Assembly: GCA_036930585.1 (NCBI GenBank) | Contig: GCA_036930585.1_3066.1 | Length of the DNA: 64,000 nucleotides | Reading direction: 5' to 3' (one strand) | Source of the DNA: a phage | The notes under the pieces: generated by a model | What the model saw: only the letters and a program-made list of their open reading frames with translations | The model's database searches: none | What the model was told of the DNA's origin: nothing | In this document: piece by piece, positions 3,793 to 61,469 of the stretch | How the letters are laid out: each line of letters starts with the position of its first letter | How positions within the stretch are numbered: the stretch's first letter is position 1 | Made by a program: the position numbers and the translations under genes

Positions 3793-4098
3793 TTGCGGCA
3801 ACCTTGTCGGGGTTCCACCTGCTAAGGCAAGTGTTTGTACGAAACGCCGGGATTCGAACCCGGTTATTAAGCAGTTGACGCTACTCAATATTTTTAAAAG
3901 GCCATATCTCGACCATATCCGAACGTTCCGTCAAAAACGCTACTCGGCTTACGGCAAAGATATTTCCTCGAATCGATAATTCGGTGCGCCGTTTCAGCTG
4001 TGATGTAAGGGGACATTAACAGATCGTAAAGATTTGTTAATGCCAGTCCTTACCCAGGGAACATCAGTCCGACGACTTACCGGTAGCGACCCGGTTTC
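3793..4098 (-). ncRNA. candidate stable small RNA(s) of the tRNA region (tRNA-like T-arm motif)
   Basis: About 300 bp with no credible ORF between orf 4099..4449 and a terminator; minus strand contains CCGGG-TTCGAAT-CCCGG (plus coords 3847-3863) without a full cloverleaf; by position analogous to T4 stable RNAs rnaC/rnaD. Confidence 0.35.
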
Positions 4099-4449
4099 TT
4101 AATATTCTTTTAAAGCATCAATCTGTTCACGGCGTTTACGCCATAAATTAATTACTTCATAAGCGGATTCAGCATTTCGAATTGGTCGGCATTTATATAA
4201 AGACTTGCGATTTTGATATTGTGTAGATAACGGAATTTTATCTAAAAGGTCTTTACGTTCAAAGTATTCGTAACCATCTAAGCCAAATGAACGATTTTTG
4301 AGAAATTGCCAATGACCAAATTCGTTTTGAATATAAATATAATCCGCGTGTTGATAAAGTAAATTAATTTCACGAAATGAGATATGTTTTTCATATTCAT
4401 TGAAGTAAAATGTTAAATCATGAACTACTAAATAAACATTACCTTTCAT
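4099..4449 (-). CDS. hypothetical protein (116 aa)
   Basis: ORF track; ATG with GAGGA SD; lies between tRNA-Arg and the candidate stable-RNA region. Confidence 0.55.
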   Translation of the reverse strand: MKGNVYLVVHDLTFYFNEYEKHISFREINLLYQHADYIYIQNEFGHWQFLKNRSFGLDGYEYFERKDLLDKIPLSTQYQNRKSLYKCRPIRNAESAYEVINLWRKRREQIDALKEY

Positions 4450-4467
4450 ATTTTCCTCACTTATAAT

Positions 4468-4543
4468 TGGTCGAGGCAGTAGGGATCGAACCTACGACCC
4501 AGGACTTAGAAGGTCCTTGCTCTTCCTTCTGAGCTATGCCTCG
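4468..4543 (-). tRNA. tRNA-Arg (anticodon UCU)
   Basis: Hand-folded: acceptor CGAGGCA/TGCCTCG, anticodon loop CUUCUAA, T-arm GGTTCGATCC, discriminator A, encoded CCA. Confidence 0.85.
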
Positions 4544-4547
4544 TAAT

Positions 4548-4623
4548 TGGGGTGACCGATGGGAGTCGAACCCATGACTACGAGAATCACAATCTCGAGT
4601 TCTACCAACTAAACTACGGCCAC
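4548..4623 (-). tRNA. tRNA-His (anticodon GUG)
   Basis: Acceptor GTGGCCG/CGGTCAC (one G-U), anticodon stem CGAGA/TCTCG, loop UUGUGAU, discriminator C, CCA encoded; no encoded G-1. Confidence 0.65.
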
Positions 4624-4717
4624 ATTAATACCTACTCCAACAATCAAGATGTCTTCACACGAAATTAAGAGAAGAGTGATCAGTTCAACCCCGATAATCG
4701 CGTCAAGTAGATATTAA

Positions 4718-4733
4718 TGTGACAATTGTCACA
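4718..4733. repeat. perfect 16-bp palindrome TGTGACAATTGTCACA (CRP-consensus-like; also an RNA hairpin)
   Basis: In the 114-bp gap between tRNA-His and tRNA-Asn, 4 nt from the 3' end of tRNA-Asn. Confidence 0.5.
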
Positions 4734-4737
4734 AATT

Positions 4738-4812
4738 TGGCGGACGTGATAGGATTCGAACCTATAACCAATCGCTTAACAGGCGATCGCTCTGCCATTG
4801 AGCTACACATCC
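4738..4812 (-). tRNA. tRNA-Asn (anticodon GUU)
   Basis: Acceptor GGATGTG/CACGTCC, D-stem GCTC/GAGC, anticodon stem ATCGC/GCGAT, loop CUGUUAA, discriminator G, CCA encoded. Confidence 0.7.
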
Positions 4813-4816
4813 AAAT

Positions 4817-4903
4817 TGGTGGGGAGTGATGGAGTCGAACCACCCGAGTCGCAATGACAATGGATTTACAGTCCACACCGCTACCTCTACGGGATAACTC
4901 CCC
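4817..4903 (-). tRNA. tRNA-Tyr (anticodon GUA), long variable arm
   Basis: 87 nt; acceptor GGGGAGT/ACTCCCC, anticodon loop CUGUAAA, long variable arm, T-loop TTCGACT, discriminator A, CCA; D-arm pairing irregular. Confidence 0.6.
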
Positions 4904-5421: not shown

Positions 5422-6030
5422 TTATTTATTACGTGAAAAAGACTGTTCTATCAATTCTGGACACTTTCGTTCTATCCATTTTCTAGCTTTTTGTGGGCTT
5501 ATACCTATTATTTTAGCAGCTTTACTAACCCATCCAAATTTAGAATAATCGATTTTAACTAATTCTTCGTAAATTTCATCAGTTAAAATCTTTTCATTAA
5601 TATTTACCAGTAAATGATATAATTTGTTATCATTAGCAATTTTAATGAATCTTTTATAGTTTCCGCCTTTACTTAAACCTAATGAAGTAATTGCAGATGA
5701 TATAGTAGCCGAATTTAATAATGCGTTTAAAATTTCTTCATCACTAACATTATAACGCTTTTTATTATTTTTAATATTTTTACCAGCAAAAGTATCAGTT
5801 TGCGAATGACAGTTTGGACATAATAATCTTAAATTTGATTTAAGATGATTTTTGTTATTTCCATCAATATGGTCTAATTGCAGAACAATATGCTTATTTT
5901 GCCATTTTGAAATTTTACAAATTGCACACTCATATGGAAAAATATTTTCTTTTATTATTTTGTCTTTCAGCTTTCCTGTACTAAAATTTGGATGTTTTCC
6001 TTCAAAAATTTCAGCTAATTTAGTATCCAT
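5422..6030 (-). CDS. free-standing HNH homing endonuclease (about 202 aa)
   Basis: HNH motif CAICK...LQLDHIDGNNKNHLKSNLRLLCPNCH; basic C-terminal DNA-binding region; track start 6054 appears non-ATG, first ATG at 6030 (MDTKLAEI); abuts the tRNA cluster. Confidence 0.75.
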   Translation of the reverse strand: MDTKLAEIFEGKHPNFSTGKLKDKIIKENIFPYECAICKISKWQNKHIVLQLDHIDGNNKNHLKSNLRLLCPNCHSQTDTFAGKNIKNNKKRYNVSDEEILNALLNSATISSAITSLGLSKGGNYKRFIKIANDNKLYHLLVNINEKILTDEIYEELVKIDYSKFGWVSKAAKIIGISPQKARKWIERKCPELIEQSFSRNK

Positions 6031-6104
6031 AATATGATTCCCAATTATTAACAAAGGCTCTCAAATAAGAACCCTTGATGATAGAGGGTATTAATCAGTG
6101 CGAT

Positions 6105-6146
6105 ATGAGTTAATAATAACAAATAATTCTTAAAGCATATTTACCA
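6105..6146 (-). repeat. about 40-bp repeat containing a MotA-type middle promoter (copy 1)
   Basis: ATGA(G/A)TTAATAATAACAAATAATTCTTAAAGCAT nearly identical to 63522-63565 upstream of gene 31; minus strand has MotA box TGCTTTA + 12 nt + TATTAT. Confidence 0.55.
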
Positions 6147-6431
6147 TTTATAATAATAATACATATTTACGATGCATTCAAGACCCAAAGGATTCTTGAA
6201 AATATCATATTCAAGAGGACCTTTTTCTGTTTCAATAAAGAAATCAAAATTTACTGTATTAAATTTACGTTCTTCCTTCACTAATTTAACTTGAGAAGAT
6301 GAACGGTCAATGTAAACCTTTTCAACTTCAAAACATGTTAAAATGCCATAATCATCAATCAAAGCTTTAGCCGCGTCTTGATCATATTTATATCCATTTT
6401 CAATGGATGATACTTTCGCATAAAGAATCAT
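6141..6431 (-). CDS. hypothetical protein (96 aa)
   Basis: ORF track; ATG start; compact early-gene spacing. Confidence 0.5.
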   Translation of the reverse strand: MILYAKVSSIENGYKYDQDAAKALIDDYGILTCFEVEKVYIDRSSSQVKLVKEERKFNTVNFDFFIETEKGPLEYDIFKNPLGLECIVNMYYYYKW

Positions 6432-6433
6432 TA

Positions 6434-6832
6434 TCAGCCTTCATCAACAATAGTGTGAGTATTAGCATTTACGATTTGCCACCAATCAAAGCGATTAGAA
6501 TCCATCGGTTTGTTTTCATTTTCTTTGATAATGTCACGGAGTTCATCTTCAGAGAATGCTTTAGCGATTAAATCGGTATACCCACCACGTGGATAATAAT
6601 TATCACCTGCAAACAAAAGGAAATTTACCTTCCCGGAAGGAACATACGCTTCCTTAGGATACTTGTTTCCTGCGTGGTCAACCACTTCAATATAACGGTA
6701 AGGAATATCGGTTCTTTCAACCCATTGCCATGCCGCTGCAGGGGAATCGAAAGCATCTACACCTAAACGATTATCTTCATCTTTAGACGGATTATTTTCG
6801 TAATCCGCATATACATAATATTCAACGTTCAT
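6434..6832 (-). CDS. hypothetical protein (132 aa)
   Basis: ORF track; ATG start; stop 2 nt before downstream start. Confidence 0.5.
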   Translation of the reverse strand: MNVEYYVYADYENNPSKDEDNRLGVDAFDSPAAAWQWVERTDIPYRYIEVVDHAGNKYPKEAYVPSGKVNFLLFAGDNYYPRGGYTDLIAKAFSEDELRDIIKENENKPMDSNRFDWWQIVNANTHTIVDEG

Positions 6833-54714: not shown

Positions 54715-54740
54715 GGGGACCTTTCGGTCCCCATATTTTT
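54715..54740. terminator. bidirectional terminator GGGGACC-TTTC-GGTCCCC + T-run
   Basis: Perfect 7-bp stem followed by ATATTTTT; between convergent gene 54 and the alt-region genes. Confidence 0.7.
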
Positions 54741-55029
54741 ATTTACGGAATGAAATGAAAGCAGCAACTGAAGCAACTAAACTGTCTTCAATATAAACTT
54801 CAATTTTTACCGGAGCTTCTGACTCAAATTTACCTGTTACTACACCCTGAAAAATACTTTCAGTCTGTTCTGGCTTTGAAAAATTTTCAGAAGGAAAAAT
54901 TCCAAATTTTTTATCTGTTCCGAAAATTTTGATAAATTCATCATAAACTGCTTCATTAAAAGCGTTATCAGCAGGAATAACGCCTTCAACTACAAGTTCT
55001 TGACCTAAAAAGCGTAAAGAAGATTTCAT
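54739..55029 (-). CDS. hypothetical protein (96 aa), alt.-3-like
   Basis: ORF track; downstream of the alt cluster. Confidence 0.55.
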   Translation of the reverse strand: MKSSLRFLGQELVVEGVIPADNAFNEAVYDEFIKIFGTDKKFGIFPSENFSKPEQTESIFQGVVTGKFESEAPVKIEVYIEDSLVASVAAFISFRK

Positions 55030-55061: not shown

Positions 55062-55265
55062 CTATAACACAACACGAGGGACTTGTAAACTACATTTTGA
55101 ACTTTTTAGTACGCGTAATAGGCATGCGTCGATTTTATACTGTTTCATTGTTTGAAGAGCAGTATCAAAAACAGCATTAATGACACCAATTGGATTTCCA
55201 CCCAAGTTTTTAAGCTTAACTAATGATAGTTTCTCATTAACACCTATCATTACGATATGCATCAT
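55062..55265 (-). CDS. Alt N-terminal paralog fragment (67 aa)
   Basis: MMHIVMIGVNEKLSLVKLKNLGGNPIGVINAVFDTALQTMKQYKIDACLLRVLKS parallels Alt residues about 62-128 (MMHIVPFTLTAKGSIAKLKGLGPSPINYINSVFTVAMQTMRQYKIDACMLRILKS). Confidence 0.5.
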   Translation of the reverse strand: MMHIVMIGVNEKLSLVKLKNLGGNPIGVINAVFDTALQTMKQYKIDACLLRVLKSSKCSLQVPRVVL

Positions 55266-55450
55266 TTTGTCGCCTGGTTTAACGTTTTATCTGTATCACC
55301 GCCAGAGGTGTATGTACAAAATCTAAATCCAGGAAGCACGCTTTCTTCGCCGGCTTGAATAGCAAAAATTTGTGGTATTTTATGCTTAGGATTTAAGTTA
55401 ACAACCGGCGCCGAAGCGCCGTCAAATAATTATGTAATAAGTTCCATGAT
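55266..55450 (-). pseudogene. degenerate duplicate of the alt 5' end (premature stop and frameshift)
   Basis: DNA reads ATG GAA CTT ATT ACA TAA versus alt ATG GAA CTA ATT ACA GAA; further homology to alt codons 7-60 continues out of frame. Confidence 0.6.
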
Positions 55451-57499
55451 TTATCCTTGAACGAACTTGTAAGGCATGTTTGCAATATCTATGCAAGACG
55501 CAATAATTCCAAGAGATGATTCTACTTTCTGTTTAACATTTGATGAAACAAATGATGCAAAGTCAACTCTGTCTTCTATATCACCTGTCATTGTAACCAA
55601 TTCACCAGTTTCCATTAAATGGTCTCCGTCATAGATTACCGATTCGGTGAGTTCTTCTGTGGTCATAACTTCAGCTTGAATAAGCTTGTTGTTAGTTCTA
55701 ACTGTTCCATCGTTGTAAGATGCATCGGTTATTTTATTAACTTTGACCATTAATCCACGTGGCAAAATGACTTCCATTTCATTTGAAGGCGCTAAACTTC
55801 CACCGGGTAAAACAACATTAACCTTATCAGCCCCAGTAATAACCCATCCAATTCCAACTAAATTATCGCTAGAATTTACTAGTCCTTCATCAGTTTTATC
55901 AATAGAAACACTTAGACGCTTTTCGTCCGGTAAAACACCCACAGATGAATCAGTCATCCAAGTACCAAAAATATTTGGATATAATGGTGTTGACACAAAG
56001 TTTCTAAAATAAAAAACTCGATTTTTTACCATTGCTTCGTATATTGAAGGTAACATTCGTTGTGAACGATACAAAGTAATACCTTTTGGTAATCGTTCAC
56101 CATTTTTAAAGGCTGAATCTAAATTATCAATGGCTTGTTCTATTTCAGGTGCTGTTAAAATACTTGTACGCTCATCTGGATTATATAATCCCAAAAGAGC
56201 ATTATTCATGTCTACATATCCTGAACCTACATATTCACGAATTCCGCGTTTTTGCGCTGGTGTGTATTTAGATGAATCTTTATTTTCGACTATAGGATGT
56301 AATGACCATCCAGCGGTAAGAGCATATCCACGTAATTCTCTTCGAATAATCTTTGTTTTTATTGCATTCCAAGAATTTTGTACTAACTCATTCGCAGCAT
56401 CTTGATTTAAATGCGAATGCTTGTTAATGTTTCTTTCTAACCAAGCACCTTTATATTTTTCTAAAGTATCATCAACTATAGAAGCAATAGTTTCTAAAGT
56501 TTTTATTGAAGTAATAGATTCTTTTCGTAATCTTTCTAAAGCTTTATTTTTTATTTCTGCATTAACATCAGATTCTTTATCTTCAGGAATTATAGAAGCT
56601 TCTCTGAATGCCATTCCAGCTGTAACACTGCTAAGAGCATTCTCTAGTGCAAATCCTGAAGTAGAAATAACAGTTAATTCATTAGCGTCAGAAATTAAAG
56701 GAGCGTCAGCGGGTTTATTTAATTCTGCTGCTGAAGCCTCAAATTTTTGAAACATCGGCGTTTCAAATCTAGAAGATTCCAATGATTGACTTTGCGCAAT
56801 TGCTCTACGGGAAATTTTAACTTTAACGATTACGGCTTGGTCAGAACGTTTATCATTTTCTTGTGCAATTGATGCTGCAATTGCCTCATTTTTAGTTACT
56901 TGGGCTCCAGTATCTTTATTGATATAAACATCACCGACTTTCGATTCAACTTTAGTAAAGAGCTCGGTACTAATTTCCGGAACTCCTGGAATGTCTTCTA
57001 GTGATACATTTTTGCGATGTATAAGAATATATGCATACTTTTTATCATAATCCCAGAGTTCCTTAAGAAGGACGTATCTGCCACCTGAACGACTACGGAT
57101 AAGTCTATCAGCAATAACTTGAATTTGTCGAGCTTGACCGGCGGTTTTAGACTTAAGAATACGAAGCATGCAGGCATCAATTTTATATTGACGCATTGTT
57201 TGCATTGCAACAGTAAAAACTGAATTGATATAATTAATCGGGCTTGGACCAAGACCTTTTAATTTAGCAATTGAACCTTTAGCAGTTAATGTAAAAGGAA
57301 CAATATGCATCATTTTATCGCCCATCTTTAAATCACGATTAGTATCACCTCCAGATGTATAGGTACATAAACGAAAGCCTGGTTGTTCAATTGCATCATC
57401 AACATGAACTGAAAAAATTTGTGGTATTTTCTTCTTTGGATTTAAGTTTGTAATCGGAAGAGTAGTATCTTCGTCAAATAATTCTGTAATTAGTTCCAT
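55451..57499 (-). CDS. alt: Alt ADP-ribosyltransferase (packaged, injected)
   Basis: 682 aa from the second Met (track ORF is 683 aa beginning MM), matching the recalled T4 Alt length; synteny next to gene 30. Confidence 0.9.
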   Translation of the reverse strand: MELITELFDEDTTLPITNLNPKKKIPQIFSVHVDDAIEQPGFRLCTYTSGGDTNRDLKMGDKMMHIVPFTLTAKGSIAKLKGLGPSPINYINSVFTVAMQTMRQYKIDACMLRILKSKTAGQARQIQVIADRLIRSRSGGRYVLLKELWDYDKKYAYILIHRKNVSLEDIPGVPEISTELFTKVESKVGDVYINKDTGAQVTKNEAIAASIAQENDKRSDQAVIVKVKISRRAIAQSQSLESSRFETPMFQKFEASAAELNKPADAPLISDANELTVISTSGFALENALSSVTAGMAFREASIIPEDKESDVNAEIKNKALERLRKESITSIKTLETIASIVDDTLEKYKGAWLERNINKHSHLNQDAANELVQNSWNAIKTKIIRRELRGYALTAGWSLHPIVENKDSSKYTPAQKRGIREYVGSGYVDMNNALLGLYNPDERTSILTAPEIEQAIDNLDSAFKNGERLPKGITLYRSQRMLPSIYEAMVKNRVFYFRNFVSTPLYPNIFGTWMTDSSVGVLPDEKRLSVSIDKTDEGLVNSSDNLVGIGWVITGADKVNVVLPGGSLAPSNEMEVILPRGLMVKVNKITDASYNDGTVRTNNKLIQAEVMTTEELTESVIYDGDHLMETGELVTMTGDIEDRVDFASFVSSNVKQKVESSLGIIASCIDIANMPYKFVQG

Positions 57500-57522
57500 C
57501 ATATCCTCTCTAGTGTTTATTC

Positions 57523-57530
57523 TATTTATA
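57523..57530 (-). promoter_or_regulatory. late promoter TATAAATA (alt)
   Basis: Exact TATAAATA on minus strand about 21 nt upstream of alt start. Confidence 0.55.
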
Positions 57531-57535
57531 AAATT

Positions 57536-57553
57536 AAAGGCCCGAAGGCCTTT
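57536..57553 (-). terminator. hairpin AAAGGCC-CGAA-GGCCTTT
   Basis: 7-bp stem with tetraloop between orf 57552..57740 and alt. Confidence 0.45.
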
Positions 57554-57740
57554 AATAATCTATTGGTAAGAGAGTACGATATATTTCAAACTTTGGTCCT
57601 TTTTCATAGGCATCAAATGTTTCTGTGAATTTATTATAAGCGTATGCATCTACAAATTCGAGAATGACTTGTGATACAGAAGTAGAAACATCTCCACCTT
57701 CTTTTTGAGCAATGACAATTGTTTCTAAGTAAGCTTTCAT
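57552..57740 (-). CDS. hypothetical small protein (62 aa)
   Basis: ORF track; ATG overlaps the ligase stop (ATGA). Confidence 0.5.
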   Translation of the reverse strand: MKAYLETIVIAQKEGGDVSTSVSQVILEFVDAYAYNKFTETFDAYEKGPKFEIYRTLLPIDY

Positions 57741-59200
57741 AAACCAGTTACCTCATGAAAATCACCAAATACATCTTCGAACGTATTAGCTTTAGTTTTA
57801 TCTTCGCGTAAACGAATCGCAATCGGAAGAAATAATTTAACGTAATCAGTGCGGCCATCAGATTTTAACCAACCGTTGCATTCGCACTCTAGAATTTTTC
57901 CAATATAATAATTTTGGTTTTCCATAATGCGAGTACGGTCAAGTTCATGCGATTTTACACCGGCTTTATCTTTTAAGCCTGAACCAGCATTTACCTTAAT
58001 TTTTCCACACTCTGACTCAAGAATAAATCCACCTGCTTTAGTAGGGTCTTTACGGTGAGGATAAATTCCTACAATTTTTAAATCAACATCAATTACTTCT
58101 TTAAATTTATAGAGATTTTTTGAACGAGCATTTTCCCATAATCCATCGATATTTTTGAGAATAATACCTTCAAGACCTTGGTCAATATACTTTTTATAAA
58201 TTACCTTGGCTTCGTCTAGGTTATTTACTACCTGGTTTTCAATTAAAATTACTTTATCATAGCCTGATGTCATTTGTTCTAGTTTAGAAAAACGTACATC
58301 ATATTTCAAACGAAATGCAGGAAGACCGTATATTTCTACCAACGGTACATAATCCCAGACCTGAAACTTCATGCATTGTGCTTCTTTTTCAGAAATGGTT
58401 CCCTTTAAAGATTTATTGGCGATGCCATTAGATGCAGTACGTGATTCAGCTACTTCGGCGAATTCTTTAGCTTTACTGTTTTCAGGATAAGCATCAAAAA
58501 GAAAATCTAGGCCTTCTGGCTCCTTTTCAACTTGCTCATGGTATACCAATTCGCCATCAATTAACACGCCTTCTGGATGAATCTGGCGGGCTTCAGCGGT
58601 CATTTTGATTAATTCTTCCTTAAGAAGATCTAATCCTAGATATTCATTACCAGCTCGTGATAAAAGACGAACGTCATCTAATTCATCACCTCTGACTTCG
58701 GCAAAGCACCGAGCTCCATCAGCTTTTAACTGGGCAAAGGCTGGAAATTTGATATTCTTATTAATGCCTTTTTCATCATAAGAACTTGCGAGCATTTGAG
58801 GTTGTTCAGGAATTAAACCTGGCCAAACTTTGTTTGCAATAGATACTGAAGCACCGCATTCAAGGTCTCGCATCATCACCCGACGCAAAACTTCAACATC
58901 ATCTTTTTTACCGTCAGTAATATATCCAGTTAATTCCTCAATTGCCGCATTTCCAGTCAATTTCCGAGTAGCTAACGTGAATTCAATGAAGTCAAGCATA
59001 TCGGTAAGAGTCAACATTCCAAAACTCTGGGTAGCAATACCCGGTTTAGGCCATTTCTTGATATAATACTGTAACCCACGAGAATAAGTCAGACGATATA
59101 CTCGTTTAAGCAATTCATTATCTTTATTCTTTTCAAGAATTGCTTGCTTCTGCTTAGTTGAACCAATAGATGCTATTTCGTTCAGAATTTTAAGAATCAT
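57737..59200 (-). CDS. 30: ATP-dependent DNA ligase (gene 30)
   Basis: 487 aa; ligase motif I KADGAR; MILKILNEIASIGSTKQKQAILEKNKDNELLKRVYRLTY matches recalled T4 ligase. Confidence 0.95.
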   Translation of the reverse strand: MILKILNEIASIGSTKQKQAILEKNKDNELLKRVYRLTYSRGLQYYIKKWPKPGIATQSFGMLTLTDMLDFIEFTLATRKLTGNAAIEELTGYITDGKKDDVEVLRRVMMRDLECGASVSIANKVWPGLIPEQPQMLASSYDEKGINKNIKFPAFAQLKADGARCFAEVRGDELDDVRLLSRAGNEYLGLDLLKEELIKMTAEARQIHPEGVLIDGELVYHEQVEKEPEGLDFLFDAYPENSKAKEFAEVAESRTASNGIANKSLKGTISEKEAQCMKFQVWDYVPLVEIYGLPAFRLKYDVRFSKLEQMTSGYDKVILIENQVVNNLDEAKVIYKKYIDQGLEGIILKNIDGLWENARSKNLYKFKEVIDVDLKIVGIYPHRKDPTKAGGFILESECGKIKVNAGSGLKDKAGVKSHELDRTRIMENQNYYIGKILECECNGWLKSDGRTDYVKLFLPIAIRLREDKTKANTFEDVFGDFHEVTGL

Positions 59201-59466
59201 TGTTCATCCTTTAGAGTTTGGTTTACAGCTCTATTATAAATCAATTCATCATTAAGCTCAGTCAAAGACCTGTGGTACGTGGTTCTAACTTTATTTCCTT
59301 GCATCCAGTGCTTGACGTAAATGAAACCTTGCTCTACACATTTTTTAAAAATTCGTTCGTCTTTTTGAGCTCGGAATTCTGGATTGCATCTAAAAAATTG
59401 ATTTACGTGACCGTAATCACGTGTAGTATTACCTTCATTTTCATAAATAGTGTGAACAACAAACAT
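59197..59466 (-). CDS. hypothetical protein (89 aa), 30.1-like
   Basis: ORF track; overlapping start/stop with neighbours. Confidence 0.6.
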   Translation of the reverse strand: MFVVHTIYENEGNTTRDYGHVNQFFRCNPEFRAQKDERIFKKCVEQGFIYVKHWMQGNKVRTTYHRSLTELNDELIYNRAVNQTLKDEQ

Positions 59467-60293
59467 TAGAATGCTCCTTGGAAAATATTATTAGCACCAG
59501 TAGGTCTATTATACAAATACTCTATGCCACCGGGTTTAATATAGTTCCATGTCTGAAACGGATGCGTCTGATATGGATTATAAGGATTAAATCCAGGAGT
59601 TCTCCAGGTAGTGTTCCAAGGAAAAGAATCGTTTTTAATCATCTTTTCAATTACATCTTTTATAGCTTTTTCACTATCAAAACTTTCTTTATTTTCCTTC
59701 GGTGAAAAAAGCTTATTTTCTACATCATTCCATGTATAAACTCGCTGAGCAGTTTTTGGAATATTGTCACGCTCTCCTCGAGCCATCCAATAAACAGGAA
59801 CATTTAATATTTCACTCGCATGATCGCAATGGTGAGCGAGATCGTCAATATAACAAATCACGTTATATTTCTCTTTTGCCTTTTTAAACAACTCTTCTTT
59901 TGAAGAATCATGACCACACATCAGTACTTCTGAGAAGGCACCAGGAAAAAGAGCGTTTAAATTAAATTGACGATTCAGCAGAGCGTCAATAGAATCACCC
60001 AATGCTGTAACAGCTACAAAATTATAATCTTCTTTTAATTTGTTAATTACACACAGGGCATCTTTATACGGAGACAAGTAACGAATAAAATCTGAACGAT
60101 TGTATTTTTCAATTAGCTTGACGCCAAGTTCTTCGTCACAATTAAAGAGTTTACCTGGAGAAATAAATTTCTCATCCTGGATCATTTTTAAAATATGTTC
60201 TAACGGAAGATTATATTTCTGAGCAAAATAAGGAAGGCCCGATTGCCAGCTTAAACATACTCCATCAATATCAGTTAAAATAGTAGGCTTCAT
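59466..60293 (-). CDS. HAD-superfamily hydrolase-like protein (275 aa), 30.2-like
   Basis: N-terminal LTDIDGV (HAD motif I-like DxDG) and later YIDD acidic motif. Confidence 0.6.
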   Translation of the reverse strand: MKPTILTDIDGVCLSWQSGLPYFAQKYNLPLEHILKMIQDEKFISPGKLFNCDEELGVKLIEKYNRSDFIRYLSPYKDALCVINKLKEDYNFVAVTALGDSIDALLNRQFNLNALFPGAFSEVLMCGHDSSKEELFKKAKEKYNVICYIDDLAHHCDHASEILNVPVYWMARGERDNIPKTAQRVYTWNDVENKLFSPKENKESFDSEKAIKDVIEKMIKNDSFPWNTTWRTPGFNPYNPYQTHPFQTWNYIKPGGIEYLYNRPTGANNIFQGAF

Positions 60294-60754
60294 AGAGAGT
60301 CTCTTAATAGGTTTAACACATCAATAAATTCAGCTTCGGTTAGTATTGTATCATCTTTTGTTAGACCACTGGCCATGCTGTGCTTCAAAACTTTTCCTTT
60401 CGAGGCTTGTAATGCATCACGAAAGCCCTTGTTTTGAATCGCTGCTTCAAAATATGCATTTGTGTATAATTCTTTCCACGCCGGGGAGTATCTTGAAAAT
60501 GGAACTCCAAGCCAGAAGAGGGTCCCACGGTCCTGAGCTCTAGCATAAGACCTTCCAGCTTGTTGAGCGGCAAGCCCGGATAACCCAAATACACGACGTT
60601 GTTGTTCAACGTTTTTCACCTTGCATCCTTGGAGGAATCCTTCAAGACCTCCAAATTGAATACCATCCATAACGAAAGGCCAATGGGCGAAATTACTTAA
60701 TGCACATGATGGCCACCTAAAATTACTTCTAATCTCTAACTCAGACATTTTCAA
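60290..60754 (-). CDS. NADAR/YbiA-like (DUF1768-type) domain protein, 30.3-like
   Basis: 154 aa; SNFAHWPFVMDGIQF...GFLQGCK resembles the YbiA/NADAR core (SNFAxWP...HYFQ); similarity judged by eye only. Confidence 0.5.
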   Translation of the reverse strand: MKMSELEIRSNFRWPSCALSNFAHWPFVMDGIQFGGLEGFLQGCKVKNVEQQRRVFGLSGLAAQQAGRSYARAQDRGTLFWLGVPFSRYSPAWKELYTNAYFEAAIQNKGFRDALQASKGKVLKHSMASGLTKDDTILTEAEFIDVLNLLRDSL

Positions 60755-60947
60755 TGCTTATAATTTCAACATCAGCCCAATGACCATAGTTTGGTAGACG
60801 AAATTCAACTGGCCAGTCACTGCCTTTTTCTAATATAATAGACTCAATTTGTGGTTCTTCATGTTCATCGGTATATGGATTTTTATCTGTTACTTTATAT
60901 GTGACCTTAATGTACTGAATTCCAAAAATCTTATTAATTATATTCAT
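60741..60947 (-). CDS. hypothetical protein (68 aa)
   Basis: ORF track; 30.x-series by position. Confidence 0.5.
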   Translation of the reverse strand: MNIINKIFGIQYIKVTYKVTDKNPYTDEHEEPQIESIILEKGSDWPVEFRLPNYGHWADVEIISIENV

Positions 60948-61141
60948 ACTAATTCCTTTAATCCGTAGATAGGAGATAATTCATCACCCATACGAAGGTC
61001 TTCATTTCCATCTACCCAAGAAACAATATAAGCCTCTTTTACTTGAACATCTCCCAATTTAAATGCAGGTAAAACCTTAGAAATTAATCCAGGTATACCA
61101 ACTCCCTTTAATTCAACGGTTTGATCTAAAAAGAATTTCAT
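60944..61141 (-). CDS. hypothetical protein (65 aa)
   Basis: ORF track; overlapping stop/start. Confidence 0.5.
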   Translation of the reverse strand: MKFFLDQTVELKGVGIPGLISKVLPAFKLGDVQVKEAYIVSWVDGNEDLRMGDELSPIYGLKELV

Positions 61142-61428
61142 TAGAACCTCATCTGAAAACCATGCGATTTAACATTACCTCCACCAATATCAGAGATATT
61201 AATTTCGCGCGCAATTGAGGGGTCAATGTCAATTTCACGATTGAGTTTAGTGATAGCTAAAGTATCGCGCCCATTTACAGTACGAAACTCTAAAGGACAA
61301 ACCACATCAACGTAGTTTTTAATCGATTCGCTAGTAGGCTGCAAATGTGCAGGAAGGTCTTTAGGCGCCTTTGAGAAAACTACTTCGCAGAAGTTTTTAC
61401 GAGTATCAAAATAAGTGGTCATAAACAT
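61141..61428 (-). CDS. hypothetical protein (95 aa)
   Basis: ORF track; 30.x-series by position. Confidence 0.55.
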   Translation of the reverse strand: MFMTTYFDTRKNFCEVVFSKAPKDLPAHLQPTSESIKNYVDVVCPLEFRTVNGRDTLAITKLNREIDIDPSIAREINISDIGGGNVKSHGFQMRF

Positions 61429-61445
61429 AATAATTTCCTCAATAA

Positions 61446-61459
61446 GGGGCTGAAGCCCC
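61446..61459 (-). other. GC hairpin GGGGC-TGAA-GCCCC
   Basis: Intergenic between 30.7-like and 30.6-like ORFs; T-rich on plus side. Confidence 0.4.
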
Positions 61460-61469
61460 TCATTTTATT

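Follow-up and report, generated by a model that had tools for sequence, protein, structure and literature searches.

Gene 30.3 of a T4-like phage is very probably an allele of adfN and encodes a minimal NADAR-fold N-glycosidase

Does a small gene on the minus strand of a T4-like phage genome encode an enzyme that removes ADP-ribose (ADPr), and is the substrate of this enzyme made by the phage itself or by its host? The question comes from a stretch of 64,000 nucleotides (nt) in contig GCA_036930585.1_3066.1 of the GenBank assembly GCA_036930585.1, which as a whole is called the window below. A preliminary description, made from the sequence alone, had read one open reading frame (ORF) of the window as a NADAR/YbiA-like protein, and had placed it in a module for ADP-ribose modification and reversal, together with the Alt ADP-ribosyltransferase (ART), DNA ligase and a HAD-like hydrolase.

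The window belongs to a Tequatrovirus (T4-like) genome; its region 59400-61200 shares 99.1% identity with Escherichia phage MLP2 and has matches in 658 phage records. The genes are arranged as in the T4 region alt - alt.1 - 30 - 30.1 - 30.2 - 30.3 - 30.4 ... rIII - 31. The protein in question is identical to T4 gp30.3 in 149 of 152 positions (98%); the alignment has no gaps and the only differences are Q22H, I53V and I125M. The Pfam family PF08010 (Phage_30_3) is matched over profile positions 1-138 of 138 with 233.1 bits (E=1e-69), and the protein also matches PHROG 652. With a probability of roughly 0.93 we therefore read the gene as the Tequatrovirus allele of T4 gene 30.3, which has been renamed adfN (anti-DarT factor NADAR), and its product as a minimal NADAR-fold N-glycosidase of 152 amino acids (aa), which acts in the same way as T4 AdfN. 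Identity, function and mechanism are already known, as they were published in 2024-2025 for the 98% identical orthologue from T4. The annotation in the databases is uneven. A homolog search in a large protein collection gave 104 sequences with identities as low as ~35%, all of them with PF08010; for one of them a PF08719 domain is also precomputed, and the Joint Genome Institute (JGI) gives several the name 'YbiA (DUF1768 family)'. The GenBank record of phage Shinka labels the gene 'NADAR domain containing protein', while most of the ~1500 phage records with this gene carry the label 'hypothetical protein'.

The ORF of the preliminary description (60290..60754, -; 154 aa from a TTG) is present in the window and its product contains both motifs that had been named, SNFAHWPFVMDGIQF and GFLQGCK. 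The true start is likely the ATG at 60748, two codons inside the TTG start, which gives a coding sequence (CDS) of 152 aa at 60290-60748 (-) for adfN, i.e. for a phage-type NADAR DNA ADP-ribosylglycohydrolase. This choice is made because T4 30.3 has 459 nt and the DNA alignment runs without gaps through the start, and because the published catalytic numbering (E36, K43) fits the ATG start only. The two extra codons TTG AAA (60749..60754, -) are probably untranslated; T4 is annotated with the ATG start, the aligned sequences do not differ in the start region, and phage Shinka annotates the same 459-nt CDS. The ATG at 60748 overlaps the stop of the upstream gene by 8 nt (ATGTCTGA); this upstream ORF of 68 aa is 30.4. 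A chance ORF is implausible with a PF08010 match of E=1.1e-69 and 233 bits against a cut-off of 36 bits, and tblastn found the gene in 1511 phage records.

An additional observation concerns an internal, out-of-frame ORF within 30.3, which T4 annotates as 30.3'. The corresponding stretch of the window is 60385-60612 (-). Here the ATG of T4 30.3' is an ACG, which leaves Asn46 unchanged in the frame of 30.3; an ORF of 74 aa with a TTG start is all that remains. Judged from the sequence, the change from ATG to ACG argues against 30.3' as a conserved gene.

The relationship to the NADAR proteins could only be seen indirectly. A direct Pfam search with the window protein gave no match to PF08719 (NADAR) at E≤1, a search of NCBIfam gave no match, and a phmmer search of the PDB sequences gave only a spurious match with E=0.5. 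As direct sequence matches are missing, this link had to be made through a family profile and a predicted structure. The conservation alignment comprised 72 homologs with identities down to 36%. Scanned singly, 9 of these 72 matched PF08719 (best E=1.5e-7), and the profile of the family alignment matched E. coli YbiA (2b3w) with E=0.0076 over the LSNF...E...Q..K segment. An AlphaFold2 model, for which the input alignment held 71 sequences with the T4 row left out, reached a mean predicted local distance difference test (pLDDT) value of 92.8 and a predicted template modeling (pTM) score of 0.87. Foldseek searches against the PDB yielded three meaningful matches to this model, each with a probability of 1.00, namely YbiA (2b3w), the NADAR of Geobacter lovleyi, which is a DarG1 (8bat), and the NADAR of Phytophthora with ADP-ribose (8bau); the remaining PDB matches all had E>1. 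The predicted fold is that of a NADAR, and we consider the relationship solid despite the lack of a direct PF08719 match. By its sequence the protein is assigned to the sister family PF08010 and not to PF08719 itself, the family of the YbiA/BC4488 type. The name NADAR/YbiA-like, which the gene had been given in the preliminary description, is borne out by the transitive profile evidence and the predicted fold. The proposed check by a Pfam NADAR hidden Markov model and by the fold had a divided outcome: the profile part was negative (no match at E≤1), the fold part positive (2b3w, 8bat, 8bau). The comparison of a predicted structure with YbiA, which had also been suggested, gave the match to 2b3w with a probability of 1.00.

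The alignment of the 72 homologs also reveals the putative active site. L17, S18, N19, F20, E36, G37, F38, Q40 and H123 are, among others, invariant, and K43 is conserved in at least 90% of the sequences. The codons for L17-S18-N19-F20 (60689..60700, -) encode LSNF, an invariant motif in the core of the NADARs, which is aligned to FSNF of YbiA (2b3w). The catalytic positions of NADARs were defined as Glu, Lys and Glu/Asp in a study in Mol Cell 2023 (PMC11543638). The catalytic Glu36 (codon 60641..60643, -) is equivalent to PnNADAR E43, and the catalytic, phosphate-coordinating Lys43 (codon 60620..60622, -) to PnNADAR K50 and E. coli C7 NADAR K95 (PMC11543638). Both residues are seven positions apart, like E43 and K50 in PnNADAR, and in the profile match they are aligned with E/Q/K of YbiA. 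The third catalytic position is occupied in phage NADARs by a His, which replaces the Glu of the YbiA type and the Asp of the DarG1 type (PMC11125620, PMC11543638, PMC12945103). In the window protein this phage-NADAR signature is His123 (codon 60380..60382, -), which stands directly after the last strand of the model (E120-122).

A further element is the C-terminal helix (residues 138-151, modeled as H138-151; codons 60296..60337, -). It is needed for full activity, as truncation lowers activity (PMC11825919). The 30.3 gene of RB69 served as a negative control: an additional T puts a TGA behind residue 137 (...DDTILT), so that the protein has 137 aa and the helix is lost. The window gene is without the extra T of RB69 and reads through helix 138-151. 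Because E36, K43 and H123 are present and the C-terminal helix is intact, unlike in RB69, the window allele is likely functional. The substitutions Q22H, I53V and I125M are conservative or lie at variable sites. Residue 22 (codon 60683..60685, -), a His in the window and a Gln in T4, is such a site with natural variation, where homologs have H, Q, K, P, A, Y, G or R. With all three substitutions at non-catalytic positions, the allele should behave like T4 AdfN, with which it shares genomic position, length, E36/K43/H123 and the C-terminal helix.

The function of the T4 protein is documented by experiments. Johannesman et al. (Nat Commun 2025) mapped the resistance of T-even phages against DarTG1 to gene 30.3, which they renamed adfN (PMC11825919). 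Deletion of adfN made T4 sensitive to DarTG1 in a strain lacking adfA and also in the unmodified T4-GT7 (PMC11825919). RB69 was rescued by ectopic adfN(T4), and this rescue was weakened by E36A, by K43A and by truncation of the C-terminus (PMC11825919). Purified AdfN strips ADPr from DNA that was modified by DarT1, and the E36A mutant does not; E36A impairs AdfN(T4) in vivo as well as in vitro, and K43A also impairs it (PMC11825919). A two-hybrid assay detected no interaction between AdfN and DarT1 (PMC11825919). A study in Toxins 2024 reported that the T4 NADAR hydrolyses guanosine-ADPr and not thymidine-ADPr (PMC11125620); taken together with later data, it acts on G-ADPr and not on T-ADPr or C-ADPr (PMC11125620, PMC12945103). 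The expectation of the preliminary description that a NADAR protein hydrolyses ADP-ribose from guanine has hence been demonstrated for the 98% identical T4 orthologue (PMC11825919, PMC11125620). The same holds for the two experiments it had proposed, a knockout on DarTG hosts and an in vitro hydrolase assay, which are already published for T4 (PMC11825919).

From these data the following mechanism can be proposed for the window allele. In some E. coli strains DarTG1 would serve as a toxin-antitoxin defense; on infection, DarT1 would ADP-ribosylate guanine in the phage DNA and block replication. AdfN, presumably made from an early polycistronic message, would then bind the ADP-ribose with Lys43 on the phosphates and with Glu36 and His123 around the distal ribose. 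Cleavage of the guanine-N2-ribose bond would release ADP-ribose and restore unmodified DNA, such that replication could proceed. AdfN would in this way do the job of the host antitoxin DarG1 as an orphan antitoxin, i.e. without linkage to a toxin and without binding DarT1.

Several observations weigh against this interpretation. One is the lack of a direct PF08719 match described above. Also, AdfN(T4) does not rescue uninfected cells from the toxicity of DarT1, and its effect is weak for T5 and Bas25, which are not T-even phages (PMC11825919, PMC11125620); these two results imply that there is an unexplained phage-specific component in vivo. The mutations E36A and K43A cause only a partial loss of function in vivo (PMC11825919). 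Furthermore, the gp30.3 construct in the Toxins 2024 study is described as residues 1-208 (PMC11125620), compared with an ORF of 152 aa. The construct may have been a different homolog or may have contained extra sequence. Because of this mismatch we give less weight to the in vitro result of that study and rely mainly on the data in Nat Commun. Finally, the activity data come from the T4 protein and are extended to the window allele by likeness.

Could AdfN instead reverse the ADP-ribosylation that the phage itself carries out with Alt, ModA or ModB, and thus form a writer-eraser module with alt? The position of the genes speaks for it. The gene for the Alt protein ADP-ribosyltransferase (55451..57502, -; PF03496, E=2e-32; 98% identical to T4 Alt) is located downstream on the same strand as the fifth gene after adfN; the four genes that the preliminary description had counted between them are indeed 30.2, 30.1, 30 (ligase) and alt.1. 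In a survey from 2022 the NADARs of T4-like phages are early genes, which are encoded along with ARTs (PMC9503650). The order 30.3-30.2-30 recurs in five Straboviridae loci with 30.2 nearby (T4, Aeh1, Acinetobacter PhT2, Klebsiella phiKp_12 and Morganella MP1), and alt is near these genes in T4, Aeh1, PhT2 and MP1; it was not found in phiKp_12. However, the linkage is lost elsewhere. In JSE, 30.3 directly abuts the ligase gene, and the fetched locus has no 30.2 and no alt. In the Karamvirus Enterobacter phage EnA02 a NADAR gene (~44% identical; 6001-6450 of its fetched locus) lies in a tRNA cluster, ~60 kb away from 30.2-ligase (3992-4855 of the respective locus); this gene is relocated or independently re-acquired within the Tevenvirinae. 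In Rhizobium phage RL38J1 and on metagenomic contigs of large phages, a NADAR gene occurs without 30.2, ligase or alt as neighbors. In the window itself, alt is set apart from the block of overlapping genes that contains adfN by a hairpin with a T-rich run behind it. The chemistry does not fit either: the characterized NADARs, including the T4 protein, cleave guanine-linked ADPr, whereas Alt is an ART that targets arginine in proteins (PF03496; note in the T4 record), and the DarTG1 phenotype fully explains the selective function (PMC11825919). Because the substrate is a DNA adduct made by the host and Alt modifies arginine in proteins, we reject the writer-eraser module as very improbable. 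The broader proposal of the preliminary description, a functional module of NADAR, HAD hydrolase, ligase and Alt, has to be given up as well. The gene order is ordinary Straboviridae synteny, which is broken in the phages and contigs just named, and the substrate is guanine-ADPr made by the host DarT1.

A second explanation assigns a different substrate to the enzyme. The survey from 2022 proposed that the main in vivo substrates of phage NADARs are soluble derivatives of ADP-ribose, such as immune signals or by-products of RNA repair, and not DNA adducts; it argued from distribution and context (PMC9503650). That AdfN(T4) has no antitoxin effect in the absence of infection (PMC11825919, PMC11125620) is in line with this view, and so are Nudix and Thg1-like genes near a distant homolog. 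This homolog, which is 38% identical to gp30.3, is encoded on a metagenomic contig of 308 kb, the size of a jumbo phage, at 6001-6468 of the fetched locus and a few genes away from Nudix/Thg1-like; such neighbors suggest a nucleotide or RNA-repair context. On the other hand, removal of ADPr from DNA has been directly demonstrated, and the phenotypes of deletion and complementation are specific for DarTG1 (PMC11825919); a soluble substrate has not been shown for the phage NADAR family. Soluble compounds are therefore very unlikely to be the main substrates. The chance that the protein is a housekeeping N-glycosidase of the YbiA type, acting on intermediates of the riboflavin pathway, is almost negligible. 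His123, invariant in the alignment of 72 homologs, takes the place of the signature Glu of the last strand (PMC11125620); tblastn shows the family to be phage-borne; and de-ADP-ribosylation of DNA is shown by experiment. Removal of host-made ADPr from guanine in phage DNA is the reading that we prefer.

The comparison with known systems defines AdfN further. The DarG1 proteins (8bat; E. coli C7 NADAR) differ from it in four respects. AdfN is an orphan with 30.4 and 30.2 as neighbors and with no DarT-like gene in the operon; its His stands at the position of the catalytic Asp of DarG1; it is a core of 152 aa without the N-terminal helix and the beta-sheet extension of DarG1 (PMC12945103); and it is unable to replace DarG1 in uninfected cells (PMC11825919). 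The difference in length is apparent from the structures, as 130 of the 219 residues of 8bat align with the AdfN model. The window protein begins at the core, with the first strand at residues 3-5, and is without the N-terminal extension that forms the electropositive DNA channel of DarG1. Identity to YbiA (2b3w) and to the P. nicotianae NADAR (8bau) of family PF08719 is ~19%, with His123 in place of the signature Glu. YbiA and the stand-alone NADARs remove C-ADPr, unlike the T4 NADAR (PMC12945103). AdfA of RB69/T4 and AdfB of ICP1 have the same role as AdfN in the counter-defense of phages against DarT toxins. AdfN differs from them in that it acts enzymatically, by erasing the modification, and does not bind DarT1.

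The downstream neighbor of adfN is gene 30.2 (59466..60293, -), whose start overlaps the stop of adfN (ATGA). Its product is 97% identical to T4 gp30.2 and resembles the phosphatases of the HAD superfamily; it consists of a core (residues 1-195), which is like that of a 5'(3')-deoxyribonucleotidase, and a disordered C-terminal tail. A direct search found no match in Pfam or NCBIfam. In the alignment of gp30.2 homologs D8, D10 and K132 are invariant, and D150/D151 are conserved in at least 90%; these residues correspond to the DxD nucleophile, the Lys and the terminal acidic DD of the Rossmannoid HAD fold. The profile matches mouse 5'(3')-deoxyribonucleotidase 2jao with E=0.014. The AlphaFold2 model has a pLDDT >90 for residues 1-195, and its top Foldseek matches are 5'(3')-deoxyribonucleotidases and HAD hydrolases (E ~1e-8, probability 1.00). 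The conserved residues, the 2jao profile match and the Foldseek result confirm the earlier view of this neighbor as a HAD-like hydrolase.

The tail of gp30.2 (~197-275; 59466-59705, -) is of low confidence or disordered in the model, with pLDDT <50 at 227-235, 239-258 and 260-275. The tblastn matches to homologs of other genera end at ~residue 196, and compared with T4 there is an indel of three residues in an NPY-rich stretch. The tail is Tequatrovirus-specific.

The authors of the T4 study suggest that an additional T-even protein may be needed for AdfN (PMC11825919). Gene 30.2 is a candidate for this role because its start overlaps the adfN stop, because it is present in an intact form in RB69, which ectopic AdfN rescues, and because a literature search on gp30.2 found no published characterization. 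A dependence of AdfN on gp30.2, be it as its partner or in a downstream processing step, nevertheless seems very unlikely, since after cleavage by a NADAR the DNA carries no remnant on which a phosphatase could act, and the linkage is not universal. The proteins that flank distant AdfN homologs (254, 199 and 445 aa) showed no similarity to gp30.2. The numbers of phage records for gp30.3 (1511) and gp30.2 (1439) and their near-identical distribution over the genera are confounded by phylogeny, as both are widespread Straboviridae genes.

The gene adfN is part of a series of eight genes (30.6, 30.5, 30.4, 30.3/adfN, 30.2, 30.1, 30 ligase and alt.1, with names from the T4 record) at 57552..61428 (-), in which each junction overlaps by 1-8 nt. 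The spacer of 49 nt between alt.1 and alt (57503-57551, -) contains the hairpin AAAGGCCTTCGGGCCTTT, after which the T-rich run follows. This hairpin was not flagged by the terminator scan. A second GC-rich hairpin, GAGGGGCTTCAGCCCCT, is found between 30.7 and 30.6 (61429-61469), so that both hairpins bracket the block from 30.6 to alt.1. The operon scan returned 26 promoter-like elements compared with 25.3 in shuffled sequence and 5 terminator-like elements compared with 4.4; as there is no excess over shuffled sequence, the scan is uninformative on the transcription units.

Downstream of alt we also noticed the remnant alt.-1 (55265-55447, -), which goes back to an old duplication of the alt 5'-end. 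It has an in-frame stop at codon 6 (MELIT*LFDG...), while T4 keeps an ORF of 61 aa. The genes alt.-2 and alt.-3 (55062-55265 and 54739-55029) show 100% identity with their T4 counterparts. In phage Shinka the alt.-1 position holds a second, intact Alt paralogue; together with the remnants in the window and in T4, this indicates one paralogue at different stages of decay.

The work on AdfN published in 2024-2025 is of note in showing that phages can carry an orphan, antitoxin-like enzyme, which erases the DNA modification of a host toxin. For the window itself the value of the present analysis is a correct annotation. The apparently functional allele predicts resistance to defenses of the DarTG1 type, unlike truncated alleles of the RB69 kind, and this prediction is relevant for the choice of therapeutic T4-like phages against hosts with DarTG1.
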